Source of the DNA: a virus
Taxonomy: Duplodnaviria; Heunggongvirae; Uroviricota; Caudoviricetes
Strand: one strand, 5' to 3'
IMG/VR virus record: IMGVR_UViG_2737471829_000005
Length of the DNA: 44,545 nt
Made by a program: the position numbers and the translations under genes. Positions within the stretch are counted from its first letter, which is position 1. Each line of letters opens with the position of its first letter. Below are positions 1,209 to 44,545 of the stretch, one piece after another. The notes below the pieces were generated by a model. The model was not told where the DNA came from. It was given only the letters and a program-made list of their open reading frames with translations, and ran no database searches.

Positions 1209-1233
1209 ATAAAAAAGGCCCCCGAAGGGGCCT
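1209..1233 (-). terminator. Intrinsic terminator; functional on the minus strand, hairpin also present on plus
   Basis: aggcccc-cgaa-ggggcct, 7-bp GC stem, preceded by A6 on plus, giving a U-run on minus. Confidence 0.55.
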
Positions 1234-1238
1234 AATCG

Positions 1239-1361
1239 CTACTTGCTGCTAATGTTTATCGTCACATTCAGAGCGTTATCAGTAATCTTCCAACCCTCCC
1301 CATGTGGCGTAAACAAAGCTCCAGTAACAACGATAAAAATACACATGTAGTATTTTTTCAT
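1239..1361 (-). CDS. Small hydrophobic peptide of about 40 aa (MKKYYMCIFIVVTGALFT...); possible membrane peptide or type I toxin candidate
   Basis: Internal ATG at 1361 with AAGGG RBS 7 nt upstream; hydrophobic N-terminus; terminator directly downstream. Confidence 0.25.
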   Translation of the reverse strand: MKKYYMCIFIVVTGALFTPHGEGWKITDNALNVTINISSK

Positions 1362-1425
1362 TGTGTGGCCCTTACAGGCCGTTTCACGGCATCCCCACCG
1401 ACGAAAATGACGCGAGAGCAAGCAC

Positions 1426-1445
1426 GCTGTTTGTGCCTGCGTGGT
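1426..1445 (+). repeat. Direct repeat copy 1 (gctgtttgtgcctgcgtggt)
   Basis: 19/20 identical to 1676-1695, 250 bp apart, in an ORF-poor region. Confidence 0.5.
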
Positions 1446-1633
1446 ACGGCAAGTGGATAATCCTTTCCTGAAAGTCAGTGCCCGGGTGCGAATCGGCGGA
1501 AAGGCCCCAAGCCATATTACACGTCATACCCTTCATAATGAAGGAATAAAAAACGCTTTTATTACATAAGATTACACGTAAATAAGTTAAAAACCTTCAT
1601 TTTGCATGAGCTAATGAGCTAAATTTTTTTATA

Positions 1634-2514: not shown

Positions 2515-2616
2515 AAATGCGCCATTGGTGGACACTTTCCGAGCCGTAGCAAAATCTACGGCCGGGATTAGCCTCCTGAATAACACGATGGCGCATACCG
2601 CGTTAGCGGTTTTTTT
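2515..2616 (+). ncRNA. Candidate small regulatory RNA upstream of the small ORF and antirepressor (P1 c4-like position)
   Basis: TTGACA at 2508-2513; internal hairpin gccgtag...ctacggc; terminator-like hairpin plus T-run at 2597-2616; the -10 is poor. Confidence 0.25.
2597..2616 (+). terminator. Short intrinsic-terminator-like hairpin with T-run
   Basis: accgc-gtta-gcggt followed by T6. Confidence 0.4.
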
Positions 2617-2778
2617 ATGCGTAGAGCACTGTTACGCCCAAATTATGGTGGGTCGTACAGGGGCGGAGAAATCCGCGCCGGTTCGTCATTGTGTCCGGTA
2701 AGGCTAACCCTGTACGGCTCACCACCATTTGATTAGCCTCGAATGGCGGTGATAGTTCCATATACTGGAGATATCACA

Positions 2779-2970
2779 ATGACAAACCTACCCCATGACT
2801 ATTACGTCAACCTCGTAAAGATCCTTCTCAAGAAAGCCTCATACGCCGATAAATTCCGCCTGGCTGAAATCATCGAGCGCGAAGCTATGCGCATCGCCAG
2901 CAACGATAACGCTGTTTCTGACGCAAAAATCTCCCTCGTAACCAAAGTAGTTATGGGAGGTGCAAAATGA
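2779..2970 (+). CDS. Small protein (63 aa) overlapping the antirepressor start; Icd-like position
   Basis: ATG at 2779 with GGAG 8 nt upstream; stop overlaps the antirepressor ATG (ATGA). Confidence 0.45.
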   Translation: MTNLPHDYYVNLVKILLKKASYADKFRLAEIIEREAMRIASNDNAVSDAKISLVTKVVMGGAK

Positions 2971-4112
2971 AAACGCTTCCGACCGTTAACACCCTACAGC
3001 CTATCCTGCATAACCAAATCCCTGTCATTACTACCGAGTTACTAGCACAGCTTTACGGCACTGAGCCGGTGCGTATTCGCCAGAATCATCATGAGAACAA
3101 AGCACGTTTCGTTGAAGGGAAACACTTTTTCAAAGTTGTTGGTAATGACCTTAAAGAATTGCGGGTAGCTTTAAACTACTCTCAAAATCCAGTTTCACCT
3201 AAAGTCCGCTCCCTCATCCTCTGGACAGAACGCGGGGCTGCACGTCACGCTAAAATGCTCGAAACCGATCAGGCGTGGGATGTATTCGAACGGCTGGAAG
3301 ACTGCTACTTCAACCAGAACGCGCAAACGGCCGCGACCGTAACCGTCTCACCAAACAATGCTCGTGAGGTTGTCGATACGCTCAACGCTAAACCAATGTA
3401 TTACATTAAGGTGTGCAACAACGAGCCACTCACAACCTCAGCCGATGTTGCCCAGGCATTCAGCACCACAAACAATTCCATCGTTATGGCCATCGATGCG
3501 TTACGCATTCCTCGCACAGCTGCGGCGCGTCACTTCTTTAAAGAGCAACGACCGCTGGAAGGAAGCGACCGCGAAATAACAATCTATCGCATGACAAAAG
3601 ACGGATTTACCTTGCTCATGGAGAGCATCGACGGTCCAAGCGTGAAAGATATCAAGCTGGCCTACATTGAAGCCTTTAACGCTATCAGCAGCGTGTTAAA
3701 AACACAGTACGAGCGTGATCTGGCTAAACGACTATACCAGGAAAAAACGATTATCCGCGCGGCAACAGAGCATAATCGGCTATTAACGGAACCGAACTAC
3801 AGGAAGGAACTAATCAAGGAGTTTGACAAGGCAACAGGGAAAACCAAAGCGGCGCTAAGTCTGCCAGCAATGACTCAGGAAAATGTGATATCAGCCTTAC
3901 TTCTTGATCTGCTCAGAAACGCCAGAGCACTTATCAGCTTTGACGAAAACCTGAATCCTCAGCTCAAGCTACTACCACCGACAGGCAAAGTAGTCGACCA
4001 AGCAGATCACAACAGCATACTCAGCGTACTGGATGCAAACCTGCCAGCCAGGACACTACAGGATCTGATAAAAACATGTGCTGATAAGCTGGCACAGAAA
4101 AGCAGACCATAA
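2967..4112 (+). CDS. Phage antirepressor (Ant-like; ORF6N/AntA-type N-terminal domain)
   Basis: 381-aa ORF; N-terminal region typical of antirepressor/Rha-type proteins; terminator directly downstream. Confidence 0.65.
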   Translation: MKTLPTVNTLQPILHNQIPVITTELLAQLYGTEPVRIRQNHHENKARFVEGKHFFKVVGNDLKELRVALNYSQNPVSPKVRSLILWTERGAARHAKMLETDQAWDVFERLEDCYFNQNAQTAATVTVSPNNAREVVDTLNAKPMYYIKVCNNEPLTTSADVAQAFSTTNNSIVMAIDALRIPRTAAARHFFKEQRPLEGSDREITIYRMTKDGFTLLMESIDGPSVKDIKLAYIEAFNAISSVLKTQYERDLAKRLYQEKTIIRAATEHNRLLTEPNYRKELIKEFDKATGKTKAALSLPAMTQENVISALLLDLLRNARALISFDENLNPQLKLLPPTGKVVDQADHNSILSVLDANLPARTLQDLIKTCADKLAQKSRP

Positions 4113-5638: not shown

Positions 5639-5755
5639 CGGGTTATCTCCGGTTTAACCAGGGCGGGTATCGCTCGGTTTCGGTTATAACCTTAGGAAAT
5701 TTTTTCCCACCTGTAAAGCATTTTTTATATAAATATATAATTATATAATTCTATG
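5639..5755 (-). repeat. Conserved promoter-leader cassette, copy A
   Basis: More than 90% identical to 37715-37823 and 44444-44545; holds the AT-rich motif, a TTTACA hexamer, GGGAAAAAATTTCC, and a leader ending at GGAG and ATG. Confidence 0.8.
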
Positions 5756-5801
5756 AGCACAAAAAAGCCCCTTTGCAACAGGGGCTTATCATTCGTTCTG
5801 A

Positions 5802-11753: not shown

Positions 11754-14108
11754 TTACACCTGTGCGACGTTATACCATGTGCCATTGATGTATTTTTGTA
11801 TTGGTCTGAAGATGGCTTCATCATCGCCATCTACTTCACCAATGATTCTTAATCCGGTAATTGCGTGTCCGGCTTTTTCATAACGACCACCACGCGCCAT
11901 CAATTGAACAACACGCGTACCCAGGCGAACATCTTTCACATAACGGGAATCAAAGTTACCGTAATCCGAGGGGTTAACACGCCCTGTAATATTTATGGTT
12001 TTATTACTTTGAATGCTGCCGGAGACAAAGCGCATAACATGGACGTTATTAGCATAAACGTCCAGATTACCGTCGCCATTTTGTTTAAAGCCCGTGTCAT
12101 TATCACCCAAAACAATCGAGTTACCGCCAAGAGCACTGGATGTTCCGATGCCCAGTGCACCATTCAATTGACCTCCAGATAATGACAACGCCCCAACATC
12201 AGCAGCAGTCGGTTTAATGTGCGAACTGTAAATTACATATACAGTTCCATCTGTCAGGCCTTTTGGTTTATTCGCTGTATAAGTTGGTGATGTATGAATC
12301 GTTACGCTGGCGTTACTGGTATAATCCCACTGAATATTAACACCTGTGGCGTAATTACCTATTTCAACATAAACATCATAGGTATCACCGGATGTATTCA
12401 CCCATGCAAAATTAGTAAATCCAACCGATGTCCGTCGCCATAACGCACCAGTAAGACCTTTTGGATTTCCATTTCCCGCACGAAGAACAAGTTCAGATAT
12501 ACCAGCCTGCATAGGGGAGTTAACATTATATCCAGCACCACCAATCAGGCTTATGTAAACCACGGAACTGGCCTGGGGCATGGTTACAGTTGCCAGCCTG
12601 AACCATCCTGTACCACCACTAAAAGACATGGTTGTTGAATTTGTTGCTCCAATATTGCGCAGGAATAATCTTTTATCAGGAATATCTGCGCCATTCTGGT
12701 TTTTCTGCAACGCACCAGAAGCCTGATTTACCGTTTCCTGTAAACCGAGGTATTCGATAACGGCGGCAACGGTCGATTTCGCAAGAATATCCCGCCCGAC
12801 TTTTGTCAGAGTTGCCAGGCTGGCGACATCATTCCCCGTAAAATACGGAAACCTGTCTGCCGCAGTAGCAAGCCCGGCCAGCGCCGTCAGGGTGGCATCT
12901 TTCGGTTGCTTACCCGCAAGCGCGTTAGTCATGGTGGTCGCAAAATTCGGGTCGTTGCCCAACGCCGCAGCCAGCTCGTTCAGCGTATTTAGTGCGTCAG
13001 GCGACGAGTCCACGAGGGCAGCGATCGCAGCCATAACATAAGCCGTGCTTGCGATCTGAGTATTGTTAGTACCTTTTGGCGCAGTTGGTGTTGTTGGTGT
13101 TCCGGTCAGCGCAGGACTGTTTAAGGGCGCTTTCTTGTTCGTTTCATCCATTACCGCCTTAACAGCTTTTGGTGTCGCAGCCAGCGTTTCAGACGTGCTG
13201 TTAGTGGCACTACTGAGCTGAGTTATTCCCCTTACAGTCAGTGAAGCTACAGGCACATTTGTTATCTGCTCCCACGAATGCGTGTGATTGGACGGAGCCT
13301 TTCCGGCCGCAAGATCATACGCTGCCTTAACAGCCTTTGGTGTTGCTGCTAGCGTTTCAGACGTGCTGTTGGTGGCACTACTGAGCTGAACAATCCCTTT
13401 TCGCGCTGTGGTAGCGTCCTGTGCGGTGTATTTAGCGTTAGCAAGGTCATATGCTGCCTTAACAGCCTTAGGCGTCGCAGCAAGCGTTTCAGACGCGCTA
13501 TTGGTGGCGCTGCTAAGTTGAACAAAGCCTTTTGAGGTTAAAGTTGCATCAGGATGATTACGTGATTGCTCATGTTTCACAATGGCTTGCTTAAGCCGCT
13601 TTGCTGAAACAGCAAGGGAATCATCTGTACCTGCCTCAATTTCTTGTTCATTAGCAAATCTTGCCACCCCAACAACAGTTTCGGTCGCGGGAGGATTAAT
13701 AAACTCAATATCACCAAATGTAATATTTTTAGTATCAAGAGTCTTAATTGCTATATCACTTGATATTAAAGCGATAGTAGATGATGCTTTATTTATTATT
13801 GCTTGTTCTTGTGAGTATACAGCAAACAACGCCCCCTTATTCGTATACAATCCTATTGTATGGACAACATACTCATCTTTACTATCATCCTTCGCTGTTA
13901 CATGAATTGTATCAGGGGAAACAACTTTGCCACCTATTGTGGTAAGTCGTTTTATTTCGTTTGTTATATTTGTTTGTGAGGTTGACGTGACATAATATCT
14001 ACTACCTAAACCAACAGAAACAATCTCAACTTTATTTGTTCCTGTTTTGTTGGCATTAACCAGCTCCTGACGCCCGGCGTCAGTCATCGTAAATAATAAT
14101 TTACTCAC
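11754..14108 (-). CDS. Tail fibre protein (S); constant N-terminal part outside, variable C-terminal part inside the invertible segment
   Basis: 784 aa; repeat-rich; crossover repeat lies inside the ORF at 12679-12751. Confidence 0.85.
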   Translation of the reverse strand: MSKLLFTMTDAGRQELVNANKTGTNKVEIVSVGLGSRYYVTSTSQTNITNEIKRLTTIGGKVVSPDTIHVTAKDDSKDEYVVHTIGLYTNKGALFAVYSQEQAIINKASSTIALISSDIAIKTLDTKNITFGDIEFINPPATETVVGVARFANEQEIEAGTDDSLAVSAKRLKQAIVKHEQSRNHPDATLTSKGFVQLSSATNSASETLAATPKAVKAAYDLANAKYTAQDATTARKGIVQLSSATNSTSETLAATPKAVKAAYDLAAGKAPSNHTHSWEQITNVPVASLTVRGITQLSSATNSTSETLAATPKAVKAVMDETNKKAPLNSPALTGTPTTPTAPKGTNNTQIASTAYVMAAIAALVDSSPDALNTLNELAAALGNDPNFATTMTNALAGKQPKDATLTALAGLATAADRFPYFTGNDVASLATLTKVGRDILAKSTVAAVIEYLGLQETVNQASGALQKNQNGADIPDKRLFLRNIGATNSTTMSFSGGTGWFRLATVTMPQASSVVYISLIGGAGYNVNSPMQAGISELVLRAGNGNPKGLTGALWRRTSVGFTNFAWVNTSGDTYDVYVEIGNYATGVNIQWDYTSNASVTIHTSPTYTANKPKGLTDGTVYVIYSSHIKPTAADVGALSLSGGQLNGALGIGTSSALGGNSIVLGDNDTGFKQNGDGNLDVYANNVHVMRFVSGSIQSNKTINITGRVNPSDYGNFDSRYVKDVRLGTRVVQLMARGGRYEKAGHAITGLRIIGEVDGDDEAIFRPIQKYINGTWYNVAQV
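12679..12751. repeat. Right inverted repeat of the invertible segment, inside the tail-fibre ORF
   Basis: Reverse complement identical to 9697-9769. Confidence 0.85.
13156..13527 (-). repeat. Three tandem coding repeats (about 70 nt conserved cores) inside the tail-fibre gene
   Basis: Encode the repeated peptide SSATNS.SETLAATPKAVKA. Confidence 0.7.
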
Positions 14109-18447: not shown

Positions 18448-21232
18448 AACTTAATCTCCGTTGTTGGAACATATGAGCACTCAATTTCTTCTCAAAATCA
18501 GAATATCCCGCATCTAATGCTCTTTTAGCTGCCGCCTCAGTTTCCTTTGGTGAACCAGCCGGAAGATTGATTACAGGTGAATAGGTTATTCCACCAGTCA
18601 CAGCGTTAACGTTCTGGCGAGGTCCAGAAGTCCCGGCGGCAGATATCCCGTGAGGTGATAAATTTGATTGCCCGAACTTGGTTGCTATTGCATTCTGTAA
18701 GCTGTTATTCCTGCTAACACCTGATGCCAGAGTAGTCATTATTGCACCACCTGACTTTGTTAGCTGTGAGAATGGACCTTTTTTCGCGTCAGAGAACGGT
18801 AAATACTCACGTACAGAAGAAAAAACGCCTTTCACTTCATTAATTAAAGCATTTGCTTTTGATTTTATCCCAATGATTAACGTCTCAATTATTTTTGCAC
18901 CTGACTCACTCCAGTTTATTCCAGATAAATAAGCCGTTACAGATTGGAATGCTCTTATAAAGAGTCCAACTGGCGAAAAACGCATAAAAACAGATACCAG
19001 TGTATCTATGATTTTCTTTCCTGTTTCGCTCCAGTTAATGCCAGAAAGGTAATTTGTTGTAAGTTTAAATGCTTTAATTAAGAACGGAAGCGGAGACATC
19101 CATTTAAAAGCACTAATTAATGTACTGTAAATTCTTACTCCTGCCGAACTCCAGTTTATGTTGGAAAGATAATCCCATGCTTTACCAAATATAGATATAA
19201 TCCATCCATTGAGATCAAAGTTTAAGATAAAGTTTTTTATAGTCTCAAACGATTTAACTGTATATTCCTTAACAGAAGGCCAAACTCTGACAGCATAATC
19301 TCTGATCTTATCCCAGTTCTGATAGAGCAATATTCCTGCGGCAACCAGCGCAGATATAGCCATCTGAATCCACCCGAAGGGTGTTAGCTTTGTCGCTACA
19401 GATAAAGCCAGCATAGCTACCCTACACGCTATAACCACACTTTTCATGGTTAGAAACGCACCTGCCGCCATCACTATCTGAGACACAAAATTGGGGTTGT
19501 TAGCTACAAATTCACTAATTTTTGTAATCAGCGGAACCAAAACACTAAGCGCGGCATTCAAAGCAGGTTGCAAGGCCTGACCAAAACTTAATGATGCATT
19601 GCTAGCCTGAATACGTAATTGTTTCAATCGCTCCGCATTATCTTTCGTTATGTTGGCAAAATCGCGGTCAATAACAGCACTTCCAGCTCCAAGAGATGTT
19701 GCTTTGATTCTCTGGTATTCCTTCCAGTTTTGAATCATCGGACGAACAAAGTTCTGAACCTGCATATCGCCAAATAGTTCACCAAGTAACTTCTGATCTC
19801 CGTTCTTAGTCATTTTCATGACAGAATGCATTGCAGCTTCGAATGGATTCTTCCCTTTTTTCTGCGCTGTTGTGACAATTTTATATAAATCTACACCGAA
19901 ATTTTTCTTTGCTTTTTTTAGTGTTTCAGGGGAAAGTATTTTTGCCAAAAAGTTGTTCATATTATTAGCAGCCTCATCCGAAGTTGCAGCACCTTTGCGA
20001 GCTATCTGCAAAGCTGCCCCCATCGTCGCGGCGGCTTCTTTACCTCCCATTTTTAATGCCTGGAACTGAGCACCAAGCACAGGAAGATTTTTGGCCATAT
20101 CTTTAAATTCAAAGTTTCCCTCTTTCCCTGCCTGAACCAGAATCCCCATTGCAGACTTCATTTGAGATGGATCAATCTTCAATGAGTCACTTAATGTAAA
20201 TGATGCTTTCGAGACATCGAGGATATCAGAGCCAGTAGCTGTAGCTGTTCGCCCAATAGTTAGTAGATTCGCCTGAGCCTCTTTATAATCCTGCCCAGCA
20301 GCGACGAGAAAACCCTGAGCGGCCTGAATATCAGATGCAAACTGGTTGGTGGCCGTTCCGGTAACAAGCATCGCCTGCCCCATCGCCTGAACTTCTTCCG
20401 GCTTCATATCTGCCGTAAGACCAATCATTTTGTTTTCACGATTGAAATTTGCTGCATTGTTAGCAGCAGCAAATGCACCAGCCGCTACAGCACCAGTTTG
20501 TAATCCTGACCTTACAAGTTGACTCTTTGCCTCACCAAGATGCTCTCGCTTCAATTCACGCTGCCTTTCCAACGCGCGGTTTAACTCCTCCTGAGCACGT
20601 TTTACTGCAAGAACATTTTTCCGTGCTTCAGCCAACGCATTTTTATAACTGTTAATTTTATCAATACGTTGTTTTTCTAATGCCCGGTTAAGTTCCTCCT
20701 GCTGTTTTTTCACTTGCTGAACATTTGCTCTGGCTAAAGCCAAAGCCGTTCTGTAGCGGTTAACCTGCTCAACGCTACGGGCCTGAGCCTCACGATTACG
20801 ATCAATGCTTGCTTTAAGCTCTTTCTCTCTTGAGGCCAAAGCTCTGGCAGATGTATCAGCTCCCTGATACGCAGACTTTAAAGCGGCCAGTTCTTCACGC
20901 TGAGAACGTAGTGATGCTCGTAAATTTGATGAATGTGTTTTTGCCTTCTCAAAGTCACGAAGCATCGCTCTGGTTGGATTGGCCGTGTTTTTTATTTGCT
21001 TCTGTAACTCTTCAACGCGAGCGGCAGCTTTATGATATTCGAGGGCAGTCTGTCCAACCTTTACTTTTACAGATTGTAGCTTTTGAATTTCCCCATGTTC
21101 TTTCGTTAATCCAGCAAGCTCGGCATTTAATTTAGCAACAGCCTGATTAGCTGTAGTAAAACTTTTGGGGAGAGAGGCGGCAACTTTGCCGCCAATTTCA
21201 AAAGCCAGCTTAAAGTTCTTATTGCTGGCCAT
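18440..21232 (-). CDS. Tail tape measure protein
   Basis: 930 aa; coiled-coil-rich N-terminal half and hydrophobic segments; follows the frameshifted chaperone pair. Confidence 0.85.
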   Translation of the reverse strand: MASNKNFKLAFEIGGKVAASLPKSFTTANQAVAKLNAELAGLTKEHGEIQKLQSVKVKVGQTALEYHKAAARVEELQKQIKNTANPTRAMLRDFEKAKTHSSNLRASLRSQREELAALKSAYQGADTSARALASREKELKASIDRNREAQARSVEQVNRYRTALALARANVQQVKKQQEELNRALEKQRIDKINSYKNALAEARKNVLAVKRAQEELNRALERQRELKREHLGEAKSQLVRSGLQTGAVAAGAFAAANNAANFNRENKMIGLTADMKPEEVQAMGQAMLVTGTATNQFASDIQAAQGFLVAAGQDYKEAQANLLTIGRTATATGSDILDVSKASFTLSDSLKIDPSQMKSAMGILVQAGKEGNFEFKDMAKNLPVLGAQFQALKMGGKEAAATMGAALQIARKGAATSDEAANNMNNFLAKILSPETLKKAKKNFGVDLYKIVTTAQKKGKNPFEAAMHSVMKMTKNGDQKLLGELFGDMQVQNFVRPMIQNWKEYQRIKATSLGAGSAVIDRDFANITKDNAERLKQLRIQASNASLSFGQALQPALNAALSVLVPLITKISEFVANNPNFVSQIVMAAGAFLTMKSVVIACRVAMLALSVATKLTPFGWIQMAISALVAAGILLYQNWDKIRDYAVRVWPSVKEYTVKSFETIKNFILNFDLNGWIISIFGKAWDYLSNINWSSAGVRIYSTLISAFKWMSPLPFLIKAFKLTTNYLSGINWSETGKKIIDTLVSVFMRFSPVGLFIRAFQSVTAYLSGINWSESGAKIIETLIIGIKSKANALINEVKGVFSSVREYLPFSDAKKGPFSQLTKSGGAIMTTLASGVSRNNSLQNAIATKFGQSNLSPHGISAAGTSGPRQNVNAVTGGITYSPVINLPAGSPKETEAAAKRALDAGYSDFEKKLSAHMFQQRRLSFG

Positions 21233-31386: not shown

Positions 31387-31947
31387 TTATTCTTCCTGCT
31401 TAATAAATCGGGATTCCTGGAGCGCCTGGAGCGCAAAATTAATCTCGTCTTCAATAATGCGTTCGATCTCCCTAGCTGTTTTGCCTTCACAACGGGGAGC
31501 TGCTCTTGGAGCAATACTAAATAAGCGGCTACGCAATTCATTAGCTGCCAGAAATGCATCATCCCTGACCGCATCTTTAGCGATGAGAGAGCCTTCCTTT
31601 TCTTCAAATTCAAGGCGTTTCAGCTTTGCCTGATAAATTTTTTCTGCGGTCTTAGCCTTGTTGAATTGCACCGCAACACCGGAAGTACCACCAGCTAATC
31701 CGGCATCATCAGCGGGTAACTCTGGTTGTTCCGAAGATATCCCATGCCCTCTTTTTCCGTTTTCAGCAGATACCTCACGACCAACCTGTCGGCTCGCTTC
31801 ATAAGCCGCACTTGCTTTATCAAAATCCAGCTTGCCGCTTTTCAGCACTGGAATGCGACCGGAACGACAGAGCTTCGTAACCATTGCCGGAGAAATACCT
31901 TTCCGGCGGGCAAACTCTGACTTACTGACGATGGCCATTACTTGCAA
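31387..31947 (-). CDS. Terminase small subunit (Nu1-like, N-terminal HTH)
   Basis: 186 aa; N-terminal HTH SKSEFARRKGISPAMVTKL; immediately upstream of TerL. Confidence 0.75.
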   Translation of the reverse strand: MQVMAIVSKSEFARRKGISPAMVTKLCRSGRIPVLKSGKLDFDKASAAYEASRQVGREVSAENGKRGHGISSEQPELPADDAGLAGGTSGVAVQFNKAKTAEKIYQAKLKRLEFEEKEGSLIAKDAVRDDAFLAANELRSRLFSIAPRAAPRCEGKTAREIERIIEDEINFALQALQESRFIKQEE

Positions 31948-32528
31948 CCATTAGCAAGATACTGAACAAATCCCTCATGCGTTTCATGCGCGTCGTGGTA
32001 CTGACGATAAACATCCAGCAACAATGCAATTTCCATATCCGTCGCGGGAATACGTTCTTTATCAATAGCCAGGTACTTAATTTGAACAACAGGGGAAGAA
32101 TTATCGTCTTCTTCCTGCGGCTGTTCATCGCTTAACATTTCGTCAAGCTCTGCATCATTAAACCCAAGCAGATCAATATCAAAATCATCATCCATTAACT
32201 CTTTGACTTCTTCGGCCAGAAGCTGCATATCCCAGCCAGCATTTAAGGCCAGCTTGTTATCTGCAATCCTGTAAGCCTTCTTCTGTTTTTCAGAAAGGTT
32301 ACTCAACCGAATCGCCGGAACTTTATCCATTTCAAGAATTTCGGCTGCTGCAAGCCGACCATGCCCCGCAATCAGTTCATTCTTTTCATCGATCAGCACA
32401 GGATTAGTGAAACCGAACTCACGGATACTGTTCACCAACTGTTCAACCTGCTCATCTGAATGAGTCCGTGAATTTTTGGCGTATCTGAGCAGCTTACCGA
32501 CTGGTAAATATTCGATTTTTAGAGCCAT
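31938..32528 (-). CDS. ParB/Srx-like N-terminal domain protein (paralogue of 35195-35818)
   Basis: 196 aa; GHGR motif AGHGRLAAA; full-length paralogy with the third ParB-like protein. Confidence 0.75.
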   Translation of the reverse strand: MALKIEYLPVGKLLRYAKNSRTHSDEQVEQLVNSIREFGFTNPVLIDEKNELIAGHGRLAAAEILEMDKVPAIRLSNLSEKQKKAYRIADNKLALNAGWDMQLLAEEVKELMDDDFDIDLLGFNDAELDEMLSDEQPQEEDDNSSPVVQIKYLAIDKERIPATDMEIALLLDVYRQYHDAHETHEGFVQYLANGCK

Positions 32529-33821: not shown

Positions 33822-35201
33822 CTACTTAATCAACGGCCGGAAAGCCGCCAGCACATCATCAGATCGTCCGATTGTTGAACCACCAGGCAACGGCAACTCA
33901 AACTCAAAACGAACAGCTTTCTCCAGACTCGCCCAACTAAGGGAATCATCGTTAATGACGTGCAAATACCAGCTCTTACAGTTGAATATTGACCGCTTAA
34001 TCCTGAAACCATGTACACAACACAACTGCTTCACTTCATCATCAGAGTGAAACTTCTGGTAAAACCAGTGCCCCTTCCGGTACAACGCGGTAAAACCGTT
34101 ATGATCAATAAAATAAAGCCGGCTTTTGGAACTCGCCGCTTGTGTTTGCTTCAGGACTGTTTCCAGCTCTCCACGGCTACGACCAGAAAAGAATATTGAC
34201 CCACCAGCTTTACACAGGCCTTTCAGAACCGTCAGAACGGACCATTCAGCCTCAACACTATCGACCGAGTTCAAAACGCTATCGCAAATCACGTAGTCGT
34301 AACGCCCTCGCGTTTTTAAGTCGTCCACCAGCGTATCAATCATCCGGTTTGTTGCGGTCCTATCCAGAGTGTTTCCAGCGCCCTTACGGCGGAAAAGCTC
34401 GAGATCATGCAGGTTATATCCCTTTGCCCTGAGCATTCGCGCGTAGTCTCCCTGCCCCGAACCAAAATCAATTCCTCTTGGAGTCTTGGCAATGATCGGG
34501 AGGATCAACGACTCATACAGGTTTGATTTCAGGCTGCCACCATTACGCAACCGCATAAGCTGCGCATACGTCTGGATGTATGTTGTTTTCTCCAGATGAG
34601 AATACTCAAATACACCATAAGTTTTATTCAGATAACTTTGGTATTTTTCCTTCTCAACATCAGGGATCACAAACACCGTTAGCGGTGTGCGCGTCATCTT
34701 CGCTGCTAATGCATACTGAGCACAGTGAATAACCTCGCCAGACTGAGTAGCAACACAACCACCCCACGGACCATACTTGATAACCAGTTCCGCTATGTTC
34801 TTTCGAACATATGCCATTTTCGCGCGCATATTGCCTGAGATCTGGCTTGCCGATACCTGAACAAAACCATGCTTATCTTCCAGACCGGACACCCTGCAAC
34901 GCTCATCTCCGCTATCAAAATCCGTTCCGTTATGCAGTTGGTTAAACCGTACTTCGTCGTATACCGTCGTTTCACAGGGCAACACATACACCGCAGCACG
35001 CGTTATTCCCAACTTACGTAGCGCCTTCGTCCTTTGGTGTCCCGCCACCAGCAAATCGCCGCGCACTATCAATGGCTTCACAAGCCCTAGCTCCCTGACG
35101 CTTTCCGCCAGCCTCGCAAGATCATCCTCACCGATAAAACGCGGGTTATATTCCGCACCGCGTAGGTGCGTTATGTCGTAATTGAGGTGAAGCATCAGCA
35201 C
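33822..35201 (-). CDS. Fusion protein: N-terminal ParB/Srx-like domain plus C-terminal class I SAM-dependent methyltransferase
   Basis: 459 aa; N-terminal GHQRTKA; C-terminal IDFGSGQG and YDYVICDSVL Rossmann motifs; no DPPY-type amino-methyltransferase motif seen. Confidence 0.7.
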   Translation of the reverse strand: MLMLHLNYDITHLRGAEYNPRFIGEDDLARLAESVRELGLVKPLIVRGDLLVAGHQRTKALRKLGITRAAVYVLPCETTVYDEVRFNQLHNGTDFDSGDERCRVSGLEDKHGFVQVSASQISGNMRAKMAYVRKNIAELVIKYGPWGGCVATQSGEVIHCAQYALAAKMTRTPLTVFVIPDVEKEKYQSYLNKTYGVFEYSHLEKTTYIQTYAQLMRLRNGGSLKSNLYESLILPIIAKTPRGIDFGSGQGDYARMLRAKGYNLHDLELFRRKGAGNTLDRTATNRMIDTLVDDLKTRGRYDYVICDSVLNSVDSVEAEWSVLTVLKGLCKAGGSIFFSGRSRGELETVLKQTQAASSKSRLYFIDHNGFTALYRKGHWFYQKFHSDDEVKQLCCVHGFRIKRSIFNCKSWYLHVINDDSLSWASLEKAVRFEFELPLPGGSTIGRSDDVLAAFRPLIK

Positions 35202-35818
35202 ACCTCCCCAGCCAGCAATGCGGATACAAATCCGATATAGCTGCCATTATCATCAACATAACGAGACACCGCGCAGTCAAAACGATCCGCTTCCTCATCC
35301 GTTGCCGGGATTTTATGACCTCCAAATGACAGGTACTGAACTTTTACGCCTGATTTGGCCTCATCCTTCTCAAATGGGATATCCATACCCTCTGTGTCAT
35401 CGTAGACCGCCGCACTCAATAAGTTATCCAGTTCGCGCTGAGTAAAACCAATTGAGTCCAGAGCAAAATCATCGGCCGCAAGATCTGCAAGCTCCGCGCT
35501 TAACAACTCTTCATCCCAACCAGCATTCAGCGGAATACGGTTGTCGGCCAGACGATATGCCTTCTTCTGATTCTCCGTTAGCCCTTCCAGAACAATGCAG
35601 GGAACATCATCCATCCCCAACTGAGTGGCCGCAGCAATTCGACCATGACCAGCAATTACAACGTTGTTCTCGTCTATCAGGATCGGATTAGTCCATCCGT
35701 ACTCCTGTATGCTGGCAACAATCTGATCTACCTGCTCCACGGAGTGTGTGCGAGCGTTCTTTTCATAACCAATCAACACAGAAAGTGGTAAAGAAACCAC
35801 ATTAAGATGTTTTGTCAT
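35195..35818 (-). CDS. ParB/Srx-like N-terminal domain protein (paralogue of 31938-32528)
   Basis: 207 aa; AGHGRIAAA; conserved C-terminal IPATDEE block shared with its paralogue. Confidence 0.75.
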   Translation of the reverse strand: MTKHLNVVSLPLSVLIGYEKNARTHSVEQVDQIVASIQEYGWTNPILIDENNVVIAGHGRIAAATQLGMDDVPCIVLEGLTENQKKAYRLADNRIPLNAGWDEELLSAELADLAADDFALDSIGFTQRELDNLLSAAVYDDTEGMDIPFEKDEAKSGVKVQYLSFGGHKIPATDEEADRFDCAVSRYVDDNGSYIGFVSALLAGEVC

Positions 35819-35963
35819 GCCGTTTATCCGCTAAAATCCCCTCGCTTGTGCAAGCAAGTGGGCCTCGGTTTGTATCCACGGCACCCTGTGGGTATGAATG
35901 ACTGTCGTCAGGTCGCAACTGACGGCGGTCGCCCACCTTCCAGTAATAAAAAAGCCACCAGCA

Positions 35964-35989
35964 TTAACTCCACAGCGAGCTGGAGTTAA
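35964..35989. promoter_or_regulatory. 9-bp inverted repeat ttaactcca-N8-tggagttaa upstream of the ParB-like/late gene block
   Basis: Perfect palindrome in the 235-bp intergenic region. Confidence 0.35.
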
Positions 35990-36052
35990 TGAGGCAGCTT
36001 TGGTTTGCGCATTATCGCAGCCCCTGGTAAGCACAAGAGCTGCTGTAATGCT

Positions 36053-36084
36053 AAAAAAACAAAACCACCCGCAGGTGGTTTTAT
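36053..36084. terminator. Bidirectional intrinsic terminator at the end of accessory operon B
   Basis: aaaaccacc-cgca-ggtggtttt. Confidence 0.6.
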
Positions 36085-36110: not shown

Positions 36111-36518
36111 CTAATCAGATAAACCAAACTTCTTCTTTGCCAATGACTTGAGAAGTTCTACACCAACATCCTTCATAACAGCCAATGGCTCATTGCTAAT
36201 TTCTTTTAGTCTAGCGAAAACATCTTTGCTCTCTAGTGCACAGGCAAAATCCTGTCCCTCTGTAGTCAATCTAATATCTACATCAACAGTCCTCATTCCT
36301 GCAAAAAAATTAACATAGCCAAGACGCAGAGGATCACGCGTTTCCATCTTCATATTGCTGATAAAACCTTGCTCAATCAATTGCATATAATGAAACATGC
36401 CCTTTTCTGAGGCTATATCAAACCCCGCATCTCTTAGTTGATTTACTGTTATGAACGTGCTTTCTGAATCCAAAAACACAGTCAGCATCTTTTTTAGATA
36501 ATCTAGATCGGTGCGCAT
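36111..36518 (-). CDS. Hypothetical protein (about 135 aa)
   Basis: ATG at 36518 with AAGGAGG RBS. Confidence 0.55.
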   Translation of the reverse strand: MRTDLDYLKKMLTVFLDSESTFITVNQLRDAGFDIASEKGMFHYMQLIEQGFISNMKMETRDPLRLGYVNFFAGMRTVDVDIRLTTEGQDFACALESKDVFARLKEISNEPLAVMKDVGVELLKSLAKKKFGLSD

Positions 36519-36604
36519 TTTACCCTCCTTAAATGGAACGCAAATGTTACACAACCTTTAAAAAAGACACATTGTTTTATTTATGCCTCATTTTAATCGA
36601 CCAA

Positions 36605-36757
36605 TTACTGCCTAAATTTATCAATCAATAATTGCTCCCGCTTACGCCGAAAAGCTCTCTGCGCCACTAAGATGCGCCACAGAACACCAGCGATAACCAC
36701 CAGCGAGATACAAAAACACACGGCCACAACCATCAGAAAAATGCCAACACCATTCAT
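36605..36757 (-). CDS. Small membrane protein (50 aa; MNGVGIFLMVVAVCFCISLVVIAGVLW...)
   Basis: Not in the ORF track (under 60 aa); ATGA overlap with the upstream ORF; single transmembrane segment and basic C-terminus. Confidence 0.4.
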   Translation of the reverse strand: MNGVGIFLMVVAVCFCISLVVIAGVLWRILVAQRAFRRKREQLLIDKFRQ

Positions 36758-36960
36758 GAAACTATCCATTCTTCAATGAATATCTCCAGTAATGTCAAGA
36801 GATACGCCATCCCCAGCGCGGTTCCTACCGATATAGCTAAGACAAACCTCAAAGATAACGAGGTGTCTTTCGCTTTTCTCCAGACGTAAGCGCCAGCCAG
36901 AAATACCAACAAATCTCTTATTGGAAGCGGAAACCAGAACAAATCACTCGGCAAGTCCAC
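36754..36960 (-). CDS. Small membrane protein (68 aa)
   Basis: Two hydrophobic segments; coupled to neighbours. Confidence 0.45.
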   Translation of the reverse strand: MDLPSDLFWFPLPIRDLLVFLAGAYVWRKAKDTSLSLRFVLAISVGTALGMAYLLTLLEIFIEEWIVS

Positions 36961-36962
36961 GG

Positions 36963-37418
36963 TTATATCCTTCCATTCATTTTTATCGGATGACCAGATA
37001 GCCTTACGCAGTTGAGCTGTAAAGCTCCGGTATCAACTAACTGATCAACTAACATGATTAGAGCTTCATATTCAGACTGATAGCTAACCTGACGCATTCG
37101 ACCGCCGTTGTTCTCCAGAATGTCGGCCACCTTTGCAGCCAACTCGCTTAGACAGGAGAACTTATTCCCATATATCGTTTTATACTCGCGCTTCTGGCAT
37201 TCTTCGGCTTGCGGCTGGTTATCGAGAGCTATCAGCGACCGATGGCTATCAAGGAAGTCCACAATCTCATTCAGGCACTCTTTGGCTGCCTCATCGTGAC
37301 TTTTTCCGTATGCTTCATGGAGGACTTTCATCCTCATCATTGCTCCGTCACACATAATCGAAAGCGCGTAAAGCACATCACTAATCGCCATTTCTTTTTT
37401 GGTGCTTGTCGAAGGCAT
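36963..37418 (-). CDS. Hypothetical protein (151 aa)
   Basis: ATG at 37418 with AAGGAGA RBS, just after an internal terminator. Confidence 0.55.
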   Translation of the reverse strand: MPSTSTKKEMAISDVLYALSIMCDGAMMRMKVLHEAYGKSHDEAAKECLNEIVDFLDSHRSLIALDNQPQAEECQKREYKTIYGNKFSCLSELAAKVADILENNGGRMRQVSYQSEYEALIMLVDQLVDTGALQLNCVRLSGHPIKMNGRI

Positions 37419-37443
37419 CCCATGTTCTCCTTTGTCTGGATGT

Positions 37444-37469
37444 AAAAAAGCCCCGGCAATTGCCGAGGC
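37444..37469 (-). terminator. Intrinsic terminator inside operon B, between its first and second genes
   Basis: Minus-sense gcctcggc-aauu-gccggggc (8-bp stem) followed by U6. Confidence 0.6.
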
Positions 37470-37492
37470 TCGTTGTTCGTTATCGTTACGGT

Positions 37493-37714
37493 TTAATGCT
37501 CGCGTCGTCCGGCGACAACTTCGGATTTGTATTTCAGGTCGCCCAGCAAGAATTGCAGCTTAAGCATCTTTGCCGCCGTGTAGTTCCCTGATTCCACAAC
37601 CTCTTTCATGAGGTCATAAACGGCCGCTACATCATCAGCCAGGAACTCTTTGCGTTGCTGATCAGTCGCACGTTTGAAGGAAATACGCATTACTTTACGG
37701 TCTTGTTCTTTCAT
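37493..37714 (-). CDS. Hypothetical small protein (73 aa), first gene behind leader cassette B
   Basis: ATG directly at the conserved leader RBS. Confidence 0.55.
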   Translation of the reverse strand: MKEQDRKVMRISFKRATDQQRKEFLADDVAAVYDLMKEVVESGNYTAAKMLKLQFLLGDLKYKSEVVAGRREH

Positions 37715-37823
37715 CGGGTTATCTCCGGTTTAACCAGGGCGGGTATCGCTCGGTTTCGGGTATAACATTAGGAAATTTTTTCCCACCTGTAAAGTACTTT
37801 TTATATAAATATATAATTCTATG
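37715..37823 (-). repeat. Conserved promoter-leader cassette, copy B
   Basis: More than 90% identical to copies A and C. Confidence 0.8.
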
Positions 37824-38406
37824 ACACTTGCCAGAGAGCATCATGCAACTGGATACCTCCGTTGCACTGGTTGCCCCAGCCATGCCAGCCATCAGGTAAA
37901 TCACCGCGAGCAAACAGCTCAATACGAGGAACATCACCTAACAGTCTTACCAGCTTGTCACGAACCACATCAGGCTTCCGTGAATGTTCCAGACGAGGCG
38001 ATGTAAACGACTGAATGATCCCCGCATCAAGGCGGGTCGGCAGTTTGCCTTTTACCGCAAACAAGCAATCTTCACTGTTCGCACGAGTCATATGCCCCAT
38101 CCCCATCACCAGCTTATCTGGCTGTCGGCTACCACATTTGTTCCATGTGAAGCCCTTCATGGTCATCAGCCTGAACCCCCATGCTTTCACCACCAGCAAC
38201 GCTTCTTCTGGCTGAGTCGGAACCCACCACATGGCCAACAAACACGATTCAGGATTAGCAAGCTGCCAGACAGGAATACGAGCAATCTCCTCAGCTTTCA
38301 TCGTTGGATACTTAAAACCAGCTCCACGATTCCCATCCTTACACTTGTCTTTGTATTCCCAGGGGGGATCTGCATAAATCAGATTAAACAATGCAATTGC
38401 CTCCAT
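37819..38406 (-). CDS. MT-A70 family N6-adenine DNA methyltransferase
   Basis: 195 aa; DPPW catalytic motif near the N-terminus (LIYADPPWEY). Confidence 0.8.
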   Translation of the reverse strand: MEAIALFNLIYADPPWEYKDKCKDGNRGAGFKYPTMKAEEIARIPVWQLANPESCLLAMWWVPTQPEEALLVVKAWGFRLMTMKGFTWNKCGSRQPDKLVMGMGHMTRANSEDCLFAVKGKLPTRLDAGIIQSFTSPRLEHSRKPDVVRDKLVRLLGDVPRIELFARGDLPDGWHGWGNQCNGGIQLHDALWQVS

Positions 38407-38882: not shown

Positions 38883-38929
38883 ATGGTTGATGCGTGCGCC
38901 CATGAGAAAAGCGCATAGAATGTTGTAAC

Positions 38930-38965
38930 TATATATTTATATAATTATAGAAATATATATTACTT
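38930..38965. promoter_or_regulatory. AT-rich recurrent motif copy; candidate promoter for the tRNA unit
   Basis: ctatatatttatataattatagaaatatatattac. Confidence 0.35.
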
Positions 38966-43020: not shown

Positions 43021-43319
43021 GCCACAGCCCCTCTCAACGGCTTAACTTTGGCTAATAAGGTGTTAAACAACATGGAGTTAGGGTTCATGCCAAATGGCAA
43101 TTCCGGTTTAGCGGAGTAGTACAGGCAACCATTTATTTTCCTGGTTGTTATCTGTCCTTCGGCAACCATGCTTCTCAGTCTGCAACGCATAGAGTTCTGC
43201 GACACACCAATGTGCTCCGCGATTACGTCCACTTTTGAACATGGGTGATCGGTCAGGAAATTAATCACATCTTGGGGGTTAATAATTTTGCGTTTCATTG
43301 TCGAGGCGTCCTTATACAT
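43017..43319 (-). CDS. Winged-helix / HTH DNA-binding protein, first gene of an operon headed by the AT-rich motif
   Basis: 100 aa; DVIAEHIGVSQNSMRCRLRSMVAEGQI resembles MarR/GntR-like wHTH. Confidence 0.55.
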   Translation of the reverse strand: MYKDASTMKRKIINPQDVINFLTDHPCSKVDVIAEHIGVSQNSMRCRLRSMVAEGQITTRKINGCLYYSAKPELPFGMNPNSMLFNTLLAKVKPLRGAVA

Positions 43320-43345
43320 TTATATAAATATATAATTCTATATAC
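43319..43345 (-). promoter_or_regulatory. AT-rich recurrent motif copy upstream of the winged-helix operon
   Basis: tttatataaatatataattctatatac. Confidence 0.4.
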
Positions 43346-44443: not shown

Positions 44444-44545
44444 CAGATTTCTCCGGTTTAACCAGGGCGGGTATCGCTCGGTTTCGGTTATAACCTTAGG
44501 AAATTTTTTCCCACCTGTAAAGCACTTTTTATATAAATCTATAAT
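44444..44545 (-). repeat. Conserved promoter-leader cassette, copy C; its promoter end is cut by the window end
   Basis: More than 90% identical to copies A and B. Confidence 0.8.

Follow-up and report, generated by a model that had tools for sequence, protein, structure and literature searches.

A terminator-divided patchwork of orphan genes at the lysis/packaging junction of a temperate Escherichia coli phage-plasmid

We analysed a minus-strand locus of five open reading frames (ORFs), orfA to orfE, at positions 36,111 to 37,823 of a 44,545-nucleotide stretch of viral DNA (Caudoviricetes; IMG/VR record IMGVR_UViG_2737471829_000005), which we call the window. A preliminary description of this DNA had taken the locus for one coherent, leader-driven accessory operon and had suggested exclusion, abortive infection or toxicity as its function. 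Results showed instead that the locus is a patchwork of three separately evolving pieces that recombine independently, and the breakpoints lie within genes, namely in orfB and in the 3' end of orfD. The genes themselves had been read correctly: ORFs of 73, 151, 68, 50 and about 135 amino acids (aa) are all present on the minus strand, in the order promoter and 5' untranslated region (5'UTR), orfA, strong terminator, orfB, orfC, orfD, orfE, strong terminator, and they remain open in the aligned related loci.

As a whole, the locus is best explained, with a probability that we put at about 0.4, as a three-part, terminator-divided region at the junction of the lysis and packaging genes. In the first part, the leader promoter and 5'UTR would drive a short unit (a 73-aa fusion here, an 89-aa plus a 65-aa gene in most relatives) that would end at the internal terminator. 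The second part, orfB-orfC-orfD, would be one translationally coupled unit, made only when transcription reads through that terminator, either from the leader promoter or in longer co-directional transcripts from the lysis, tRNA and MT-A70 genes. Its products would be a helical protein of the cytoplasm and two small proteins of the inner membrane that act together at the membrane, possibly in a complex. By analogy with entry exclusion in conjugative plasmids, our leading guess, which is a tentative one, is that these three proteins might block the entry of sibling phage-plasmid DNA (homotypic exclusion). The third part, orfE, was acquired independently and occupies a swappable last slot next to the final terminator.

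The mosaic structure is seen in the distribution of the pieces among the 59 PLSDB plasmids that carry the capsid gene of this family, to which all counts out of 59 refer. The orfC-orfD DNA was present in 58 of them, the C-terminal half of the long form of orfB in 20 and orfE in 7. The two forms of orfB, of 151 and 99 aa, have about 66 N-terminal residues in common and then diverge completely at the DNA level, the C-terminal half being a swappable segment. The last 8-12 codons of orfD (36605-36640 in the window) vary with the downstream cassette, ending in …LLIDKFRQ, …RLDFYRK or …RSGCVSFKSMR (compared with the related loci L004, L005 and L014), which indicates that a recombination breakpoint lies inside orfD. 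The membrane pair orfC-orfD had been called accessory; this label does not hold, as the pair has the same spread as the capsid gene and is near-core within the lineage. Core and cargo genes thus stand side by side in one short stretch, and the breakpoints that separate them lie inside coding sequences.

One member of this near-core pair, orfC, is a real, conserved membrane-protein gene that the standard annotation pipeline has missed: in the closest records the PGAP annotation is empty at 36759-36963. In relatives orfC encodes 70 aa (MTVDLPSD…) from an ATG that overlaps the orfB stop codon (ATGA), and it was annotated there by the GenBank submitters. Since orfB ends in TAA and not TGA in the window, ATA stands there in place of this upstream ATG, and a GTG follows two codons later, after a good Shine-Dalgarno (SD) sequence. 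An alignment of the window with eight relatives shows the frame open in 9 of 9 sequences. No full-length form, not even one with only 80% identity, departs from the motif KAKDTSLSLRFVLAIS. We scored hydropathy as the best 19-residue Kyte-Doolittle value (KD19). OrfC has one clear transmembrane segment at residues about 39-64 (KD19 2.04), together with a weaker N-terminal hydrophobic segment, an RKAK loop and an acidic end.

The gene that follows, orfD, is annotated by PGAP. Its start overlaps the orfC stop (ATGA), indicating translational coupling as had been proposed, and an ATG further upstream, at 36769, would give 54 aa. The protein consists of one strongly hydrophobic helix (KD19 3.13) and a basic C-terminal tail with a net charge of +6. 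The membrane character ascribed to the two small proteins is therefore supported by their hydropathy, and both may be expected to insert into the membrane. Moreover, substitutions in their hydrophobic segments are mostly hydrophobic-to-hydrophobic. We also considered the pair as a split holin; natural in-frame orfC-orfD fusions were sought and none was found.

OrfB is predicted to be soluble and all-helical, the structure model being all-helical and unreliable (predicted local distance difference test, pLDDT, 55.9). Together with a PADLOC or DefenseFinder scan, structure prediction had been suggested as a check on the locus. It yielded a winged-helix model for OrfE, while the OrfB model was too poor for a fold search; the PADLOC part of the scan gave no significant defence match for any of the five proteins. 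More broadly, none of the five had a significant family in Pfam, NCBIfam or PADLOC, and we regard the sub-threshold scores with CcmD, Vpu and PtuB as noise; in PADLOC-DB 2.0 four proteins had no match and the best match of OrfB, to PtuB, was weak (E = 0.014, 12.8 bits). PHROGs matches were to function-unknown families only, and the OrfB and OrfE profiles gave no match below E = 0.28 against PDB sequences. No toxin profile, HOK_GEF included, and no exclusion-protein homology was found for the locus proteins. The earlier statement that none of the genes has a recognisable family thus stands as far as structural and housekeeping families are concerned, but it does not stand for OrfE, which carries a DUF2513/phrog_585 label.

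Apart from orfE, the genes had no relatives outside the lineage in any of several sequence searches. A word-indexed search of 5.8 billion clusters returned 16 matches for OrfB and 6 for OrfC, all of them in the lineage, and an exhaustive HMMER search of 1.84 billion representatives returned for OrfD its own family only, plus one spurious repeat protein. For orfA and orfC, tblastn against 50,697 phage genomes found nothing beyond three sister Yersinia phages.

The first gene, orfA, is a real reading frame, as had been described, but it is not an intact gene. Aligned with three relatives, the window has a gap of 245 bp at orfA, which makes orfA a deletion fusion: codons 1-8 of the 89-aa gene are joined in frame to the complete 65-aa gene, with the junction at 37691/37690, whereas in most relatives the 89-aa gene is followed by the 65-aa gene with a TGATG overlap. 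Residues 8-73 of OrfA match phrog_6621, a function-unknown PHROG that corresponds to the 65-aa gene (E = 1.6e-48). The fusion keeps the SD sequence and ATG of the leader and has lost the SD sequence of the 65-aa gene, so that the 73-aa reading is the translatable one here. Some 500 contigs in public data carry a 73-aa form, and over 1,000 a 65-aa form. The 89-aa protein has a helix-turn-helix (HTH)-like motif (…NVTTVYRWENK…), read from the sequence, and no Pfam match.

Downstream of orfA, the internal terminator proposed in the preliminary description is well supported: its 10-bp stem has 7 G-C pairs and is followed by T6, an 81-nt folding window gives a minimum free energy (MFE) of -20.9 kcal/mol (z = -3.1), and it is identical in 4 of 4 aligned sequences (the window and three relatives). 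A consensus promoter scan found no consensus promoter-like site on the minus strand between this terminator and orfB. For this reason orfB to orfE are probably expressed by read-through, and the leader promoter would mainly serve orfA. Since the stop codon of the MT-A70 gene abuts the leader without a terminator between them, transcripts from upstream can also enter the locus. The terminator at the end of the locus (76-nt folding window, MFE -24.3 kcal/mol, z = -4.2) had been called bidirectional; it has indeed a symmetric A-run, stem and T-run, but it lies just outside the interval that had been assigned to the locus.

The leader itself is repeated in the window: the 96-112-nt block occurs three times, with 96-98% identity between the copies. 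The other two copies head a gene for a 126-aa protein followed by an HTH protein gene, and a gene for a DUF3560 protein with primase-like similarity; these downstream genes would fit an early or middle lytic use of the leaders, without proving it. Leader copies stand at the same three positions in all leader-bearing relatives and viral contigs, which belong to the same lineage only, and the exact leader pattern had no match in GTDB species-representative genomes. A candidate sigma-70 promoter, whose activity is suggested by its sequence, has a -35 hexamer and a spacer that do not differ among the three copies. The spacer includes an inverted repeat, GGAAA-N3-TTTCC; the -10 hexamer is TAATGT in this copy versus TAAGGT in the other two and in relatives. 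The 5'UTR that would start from this promoter is predicted to be modestly structured, with z = -3.5, -2.5 and -1.9 in its three copies. It belongs to no Rfam family, and no boxA or boxB motif was seen in it by eye. PGAP annotation and Pfam scans of the neighbour genes, several of which encode unclassified hypothetical proteins, showed no antiterminator domain. Pairing of a C4-like or isrK-like RNA with the shared 5'UTR was also considered and rejected, the duplex energies being no better than those of shuffled controls (z = +0.2 to -1.7).

Directly upstream of the -35 hexamer lies an AT-rich dyad of two 8-bp units (TTATATAA ATATATAA), to which relatives add one extra unit, the number of units being variable. 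The dyad belongs to a phased AT repeat, TTATAKAW, whose motif occurs 12 times in the window where 0.10 occurrences would be expected. The promoter of parA has a cluster on each side, and one cluster precedes an 82-aa gene after parA; the remaining ones stand directly in front of the three leader promoters, before the tRNA gene (three phased repeats) and in one more intergenic gap. These repeats differ from cI/cro-type operators (ACCAC-N6-GTGGT), and the 82-aa protein has no Pfam match. By analogy with known systems, a partition protein may double as a global regulator through these 8-bp repeats.

The last gene, orfE, acquired independently as a minority cassette, encodes a protein with a winged-helix, presumably DNA-binding, fold. 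The model shows a three-helix bundle and a beta-hairpin wing that superpose on solved winged-helix proteins, at 11-21% identity, and a basic, amphipathic C-terminal helix (residues 112-130) that is strongly conserved and lies outside the aligned core. A BFVD fold search returned only uncharacterised or generic DNA-binding proteins. PGAP labels the protein DUF2513, a name absent from the searchable literature, and it matches phrog_585 (E = 9.5e-26). Against the Pfam DUF2513 model (PF10711) it scores 19.3 bits (E = 0.0015, model positions 3-96 of 100), below the gathering threshold of 29.6, suggesting that OrfE is a peripheral DUF2513 member or a sister group.

Relatives of OrfE that are 49-81% identical occur in Citrobacter, Edwardsiella, Pantoea, Pectobacterium, Serratia and Hafnia, and in 6 of 7 contexts examined the gene stands directly after a lambdoid spanin gene and before terminase genes. 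Four of these prophages have a Phage_antiter_Q gene in the fetched stretch, and a fifth has a faint Q-family match only; in Serratia the relative is followed by a ParB_N-methyltransferase gene, as in the window. The G+C content of orfE is 38.5%, and 36% at third codon positions (GC3), versus 44-48% and a GC3 of about 50% for orfA to orfD. It is the only gene of the locus with the marks of a moron, namely its rarity among the plasmids, its lower GC and a terminator (36084..36059) directly after it. In relatives the last slot can hold, instead of orfE, a 136-aa phrog_1935 protein gene, a phrog_1935 gene fused to a tail-fibre-assembly N-terminus, or a pseudogene.

The genomic setting agrees with the temperate element that had been assumed as host: the window is most of a temperate, roughly 48-kb myovirus-type E. 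coli phage-plasmid, as judged from the gene content of a full-length relative, pFDN11_2 (48,395 bp). This relative carries plasmid-maintenance genes (RepA, ParA, a RelE/HTH pair), immunity and regulation genes (a cI-like regulator, an ORF6N/Rha antirepressor), virion genes (P2-type tail, capsid, portal, terminase) and a holin-holin-GH108 lysis cassette. A 1.9-kb region covering the locus is 96-99.6% identical to the Yersinia myophages vB_YpM_39, 41 and 44. The region is also matched in 59 plasmids of 46-52 kb, none of them mobilizable, whose hosts are Escherichia and, once, Klebsiella. Of 5,426 complete E. coli genomes, 72 contained elements with the matching region, nearly all of them plasmid-borne. 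A 48.5-kb member of the family is found in E. coli ATCC 25922 (NZ_CP009073.1). In phage Rostov 7, the closest Vibrio relative that we examined, the terminase is 63% identical and the ParB/Srx and terminase genes are shared with the window; the locus is absent from it. The elements pSLy3 and vB_YpM_HQ103 proved not to be related.

Nearly all genes between the early region and the tail, those for lysis and packaging included, lie on the minus strand. The lysis genes before the locus and the packaging genes after it are transcribed in its direction, and several terminators lie along this stretch. Upstream of the locus are the lysis cassette, a tRNA gene with a CAT anticodon (labelled tRNA-Ile by PGAP in related plasmids) and the MT-A70 methyltransferase gene. 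The cassette has two holin-family genes before the GH108 endolysin gene and two further ORFs downstream, which we read from the sequence as spanins; the endolysin gene is about 2.4 kb upstream of the locus, with the tRNA gene, the methyltransferase gene, a promoter and a terminator in between. Downstream come three ParB/Srx-domain genes, one of them fused to a methyltransferase domain, and then the terminase genes. The locus therefore lies in a dense DNA-modification or anti-restriction-type neighbourhood. All coordinates are collected in Table 1.

Table 1. Positions of the features discussed in the text (window coordinates unless a relative is named; SD, Shine-Dalgarno sequence with its distance to the start codon)
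Feature	Position	Strand	Details
Leader block copies	5646-5741, 37722-37817, 44450-44545	-	minus-strand units
AT-rich dyad of 8-bp units	37801..37816	.	directly upstream of -35 hexamer
Candidate sigma-70 leader promoter	37765..37793	-	-35 TTTACA 37793..37788; 17-nt spacer; -10 TAATGT 37770..37765
Shared 5'UTR (putative start)	37715..37758	-	~44 nt; ends in SD GGAGA (37726..37722); 96-98% identity in three copies
orfA, 73 aa	37493..37714	-	SD GGAGA, 8 nt, ATG
Internal intrinsic terminator	37442..37471 (stem 37471..37448)	-	GAGCCTCGGC-AATT-GCCGGGGCTT then TTTTTT
orfB, 151 aa	36963..37418	-	SD AAGGAG, 8 nt, ATG
orfC, 68 aa	36754..36960	-	SD GGAAGGA, 7 nt, GTG
orfD, 50 aa	36605..36757	-	start overlaps orfC stop (ATGA)
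orfE, 135 aa	36111..36518	-	SD AAGGAGG, 5 nt, ATG
Final intrinsic terminator	36052..36084 (stem 36084..36059)	-	symmetric: A-run, 11-bp stem, T7
Alternative last-slot gene, phrog_1935 (function-unknown family)	relative L005 1554-1964; fused form, relative L006 1734-2447		
TTATAKAW repeat sites	4-19, 712-727, 5725-5756, 37801-37816, 38929-38960, 43312-43335, 44529-44544; relative L007 26800-26904		
Orphan MT-A70 methyltransferase gene	37819-38406		
tRNA gene, CAT anticodon	38715-38790	-	tRNA-Met by ARAGORN and vB_YpM_39 record
ParB/Srx N-terminal-domain genes	35195-35818, 33822-35201, 31938-32528		in a row before terminase
ryfA Rfam match	1211-1509	-	134.6 bits, above gathering score
isrK Rfam match	2543-2616	+	68 bits, above gathering score
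C4 antisense RNA Rfam match	2641-2729	+	70.8 bits, above gathering score

What, then, could the coupled unit do? A self-directed role is favoured because the orfC-orfD pair is lineage-specific, near-core and hardly variable, and exclusion of siblings by OrfB, OrfC and OrfD would be such a role. Several observations weigh against this reading or against parts of it. The -10 hexamer of the leader matches only 3 of 6 consensus positions, which is why the consensus scanner did not call this promoter. The ratio of nonsynonymous to synonymous substitution rates (dN/dS) of orfC and orfD is 0.23 to 1.34 in frame, like that of the wrong frames, with too few substitutions to tell more. In one viral contig (L011) the 3' part of orfC is missing, together with orfD and the last gene; orfC also occurs with an in-frame 10-aa deletion, as an orfB-orfC fusion and in frameshifted forms, and this loss together with the frameshifted and deleted forms indicates that the pair is dispensable. 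Moreover, OrfB is tied to OrfC and OrfD by translational coupling only, family searches lend no homology support to exclusion, and known exclusion proteins are, as a rule, made in the lysogen from a dedicated promoter. Nearly as likely, and a close second, is that OrfC and OrfD act with OrfB on the envelope in the lytic cycle, after late or mid-cycle read-through, where they would tune lysis in an antiholin- or holin-like manner or arrest host division. The position of the locus between co-directional lysis and packaging genes fits such a role, and the terminators along the stretch fit control by read-through or antitermination. OrfC (up to two segments) and OrfD (one segment and a basic tail) together mimic a three-segment holin topology, relatives of orfE follow spanin genes in Q-controlled late operons, and the leader copy that drives the DUF3560 primase-like protein (copy C) suggests that the leader promoters are used for lytic genes. 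However, neither protein matches a holin or antiholin family at E <= 1 in Pfam or PHROGs, the lysis cassette is already complete (both holin-family genes, the GH108 endolysin and both spanin-like ORFs), the locus is separated from it by the distance and features given above, and the PGAP annotation and Pfam scans of the neighbourhood identified no antiterminator gene.

Defence against unrelated phages from the resident plasmid-prophage, by abortive infection, heterotypic exclusion or a membrane toxin, is in our view unlikely. Small membrane proteins of temperate elements are often of the exclusion or toxin type, the element carries addiction-type loci (the RelE/HTH pair and a ryfA-like RNA), and OrfD resembles a type I toxin in size and shape, with 50 aa, one transmembrane segment and a basic tail. 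Against this, there was no significant PADLOC match and no toxin family match, and orfD is coupled inside an operon instead of standing alone; on the plus strand no promoter-like or terminator-like site was found near 36600-36800, and thus no antisense signal near orfD. Defence cargo also usually turns over, whereas the pair is near-core and hardly varies among the 59 plasmids, the turnover being in the neighbouring slots. Nothing yet shows that the locus is a defence or toxin locus. Least probable of all, we consider that the locus has little or no function, being a recombination-scarred junction whose small ORFs are kept by linkage and because the lineage is young. With only 2-8% divergence in the family, frames might stay open by chance, the dN/dS values are indistinguishable from neutral, deletions, fusions and frameshifts are frequent in public records, and the OrfB model is of low confidence. 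Yet both gene junctions retain a good SD sequence and an ATGA overlap, replacements in the hydrophobic segments are mostly conservative and KAKDTSLSLRFVLAIS does not vary in full-length forms, and the orfC-orfD block is kept in nearly all the plasmids (58 of 59) while its flanks are exchanged. A more far-reaching version of sibling exclusion, in which OrfB, OrfC and OrfD would form an undescribed lineage-specific inner-membrane self-exclusion system and thus a phage counterpart of plasmid entry exclusion, its dose set by read-through of the internal terminator and its promoter tied to partition via the 8-bp repeats that it has in common with the parA promoter, is improbable.

Some further features of the window were noticed outside the locus. 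Between the final terminator and the first ParB/Srx gene, a spacer of 240 nt (35819-36058) consists of a chain of long hairpins. On either strand its predicted folding is much more stable than that of shuffled controls (z = -4.1 and -4.5), and it might act as a non-coding RNA, as an additional terminator or, at the DNA level, as a site close to the packaging genes. At the other end of the window, the ryfA, isrK and C4 RNA matches precede an ORF6N/Rha antirepressor gene (2967-4112). This arrangement looks like a P1-type immI antisense immunity circuit with a possible ryfA-type small-toxin locus, and we take ORF 1239-1421 to hold a TimP-like peptide (MKKYYMCIF…). Two of the virion genes contain direct repeats: a 784-aa tail-fibre ORF has three 93-nt units (13141-13533), 77-84% identical to the reference copy, and a 930-aa tape-measure ORF has three 45-nt units at a spacing of 120 nt (18891-19175).

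In conclusion, the locus is a real set of orphan genes and, compared with known systems, an ordinary accessory locus. Clinical E. coli often carry phage-plasmids, whose small genes are for the most part without annotation. Exclusion, if true, would explain how these low-copy elements escape incompatibility with siblings that arrive from outside; otherwise the locus merely adds to the orphan genes known from phages.

Among known arrangements, the locus resembles the moron slot between lysis and terminase genes of lambdoid phages, an accessory slot of which lambda bor, after Rz, is an example. As there, it lies after holin, endolysin and spanin genes and before packaging genes, in the direction of the late genes, and holds differing cargo in close relatives; relatives of orfE occupy exactly that slot in prophages of Citrobacter, E. 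coli, Pectobacterium and Serratia. It differs from this slot in being preceded by a tRNA gene, an MT-A70 gene and a repeated promoter module, in having a terminator inside it, and in its middle part, orfC-orfD, which is near-core and not variable cargo. OrfE differs from winged-helix proteins of the MarR, PadR, TubR and F93 types and from DUF2513 by its identity of 11-21%, its sub-threshold score and its basic C-terminal helix.

The TTATAKAW repeats, found at the parA promoter, at the leaders and at two other intergenic sites, recall regulators that act at dispersed sites, such as P1 C1 with its scattered operators, omega of pSM19035, KorB of RK2 and N15 with its four centromere sites; in contrast to these, binding of the 8-bp repeats by the 82-aa protein is only a supposition. 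With the exclusion proteins T4 Imm and Sp, HK97 gp15, TraS and TrbK, finally, OrfB to OrfD have no sequence similarity, and they are known here from their genes alone; the locus also differs in having two coupled membrane proteins together with a coupled soluble protein. Nevertheless, OrfC and OrfD are like these exclusion proteins in being small, predicted to lie in the inner membrane and lineage-specific, and in being carried, as they are, by a mobile element that would be harmed by a second copy of itself.

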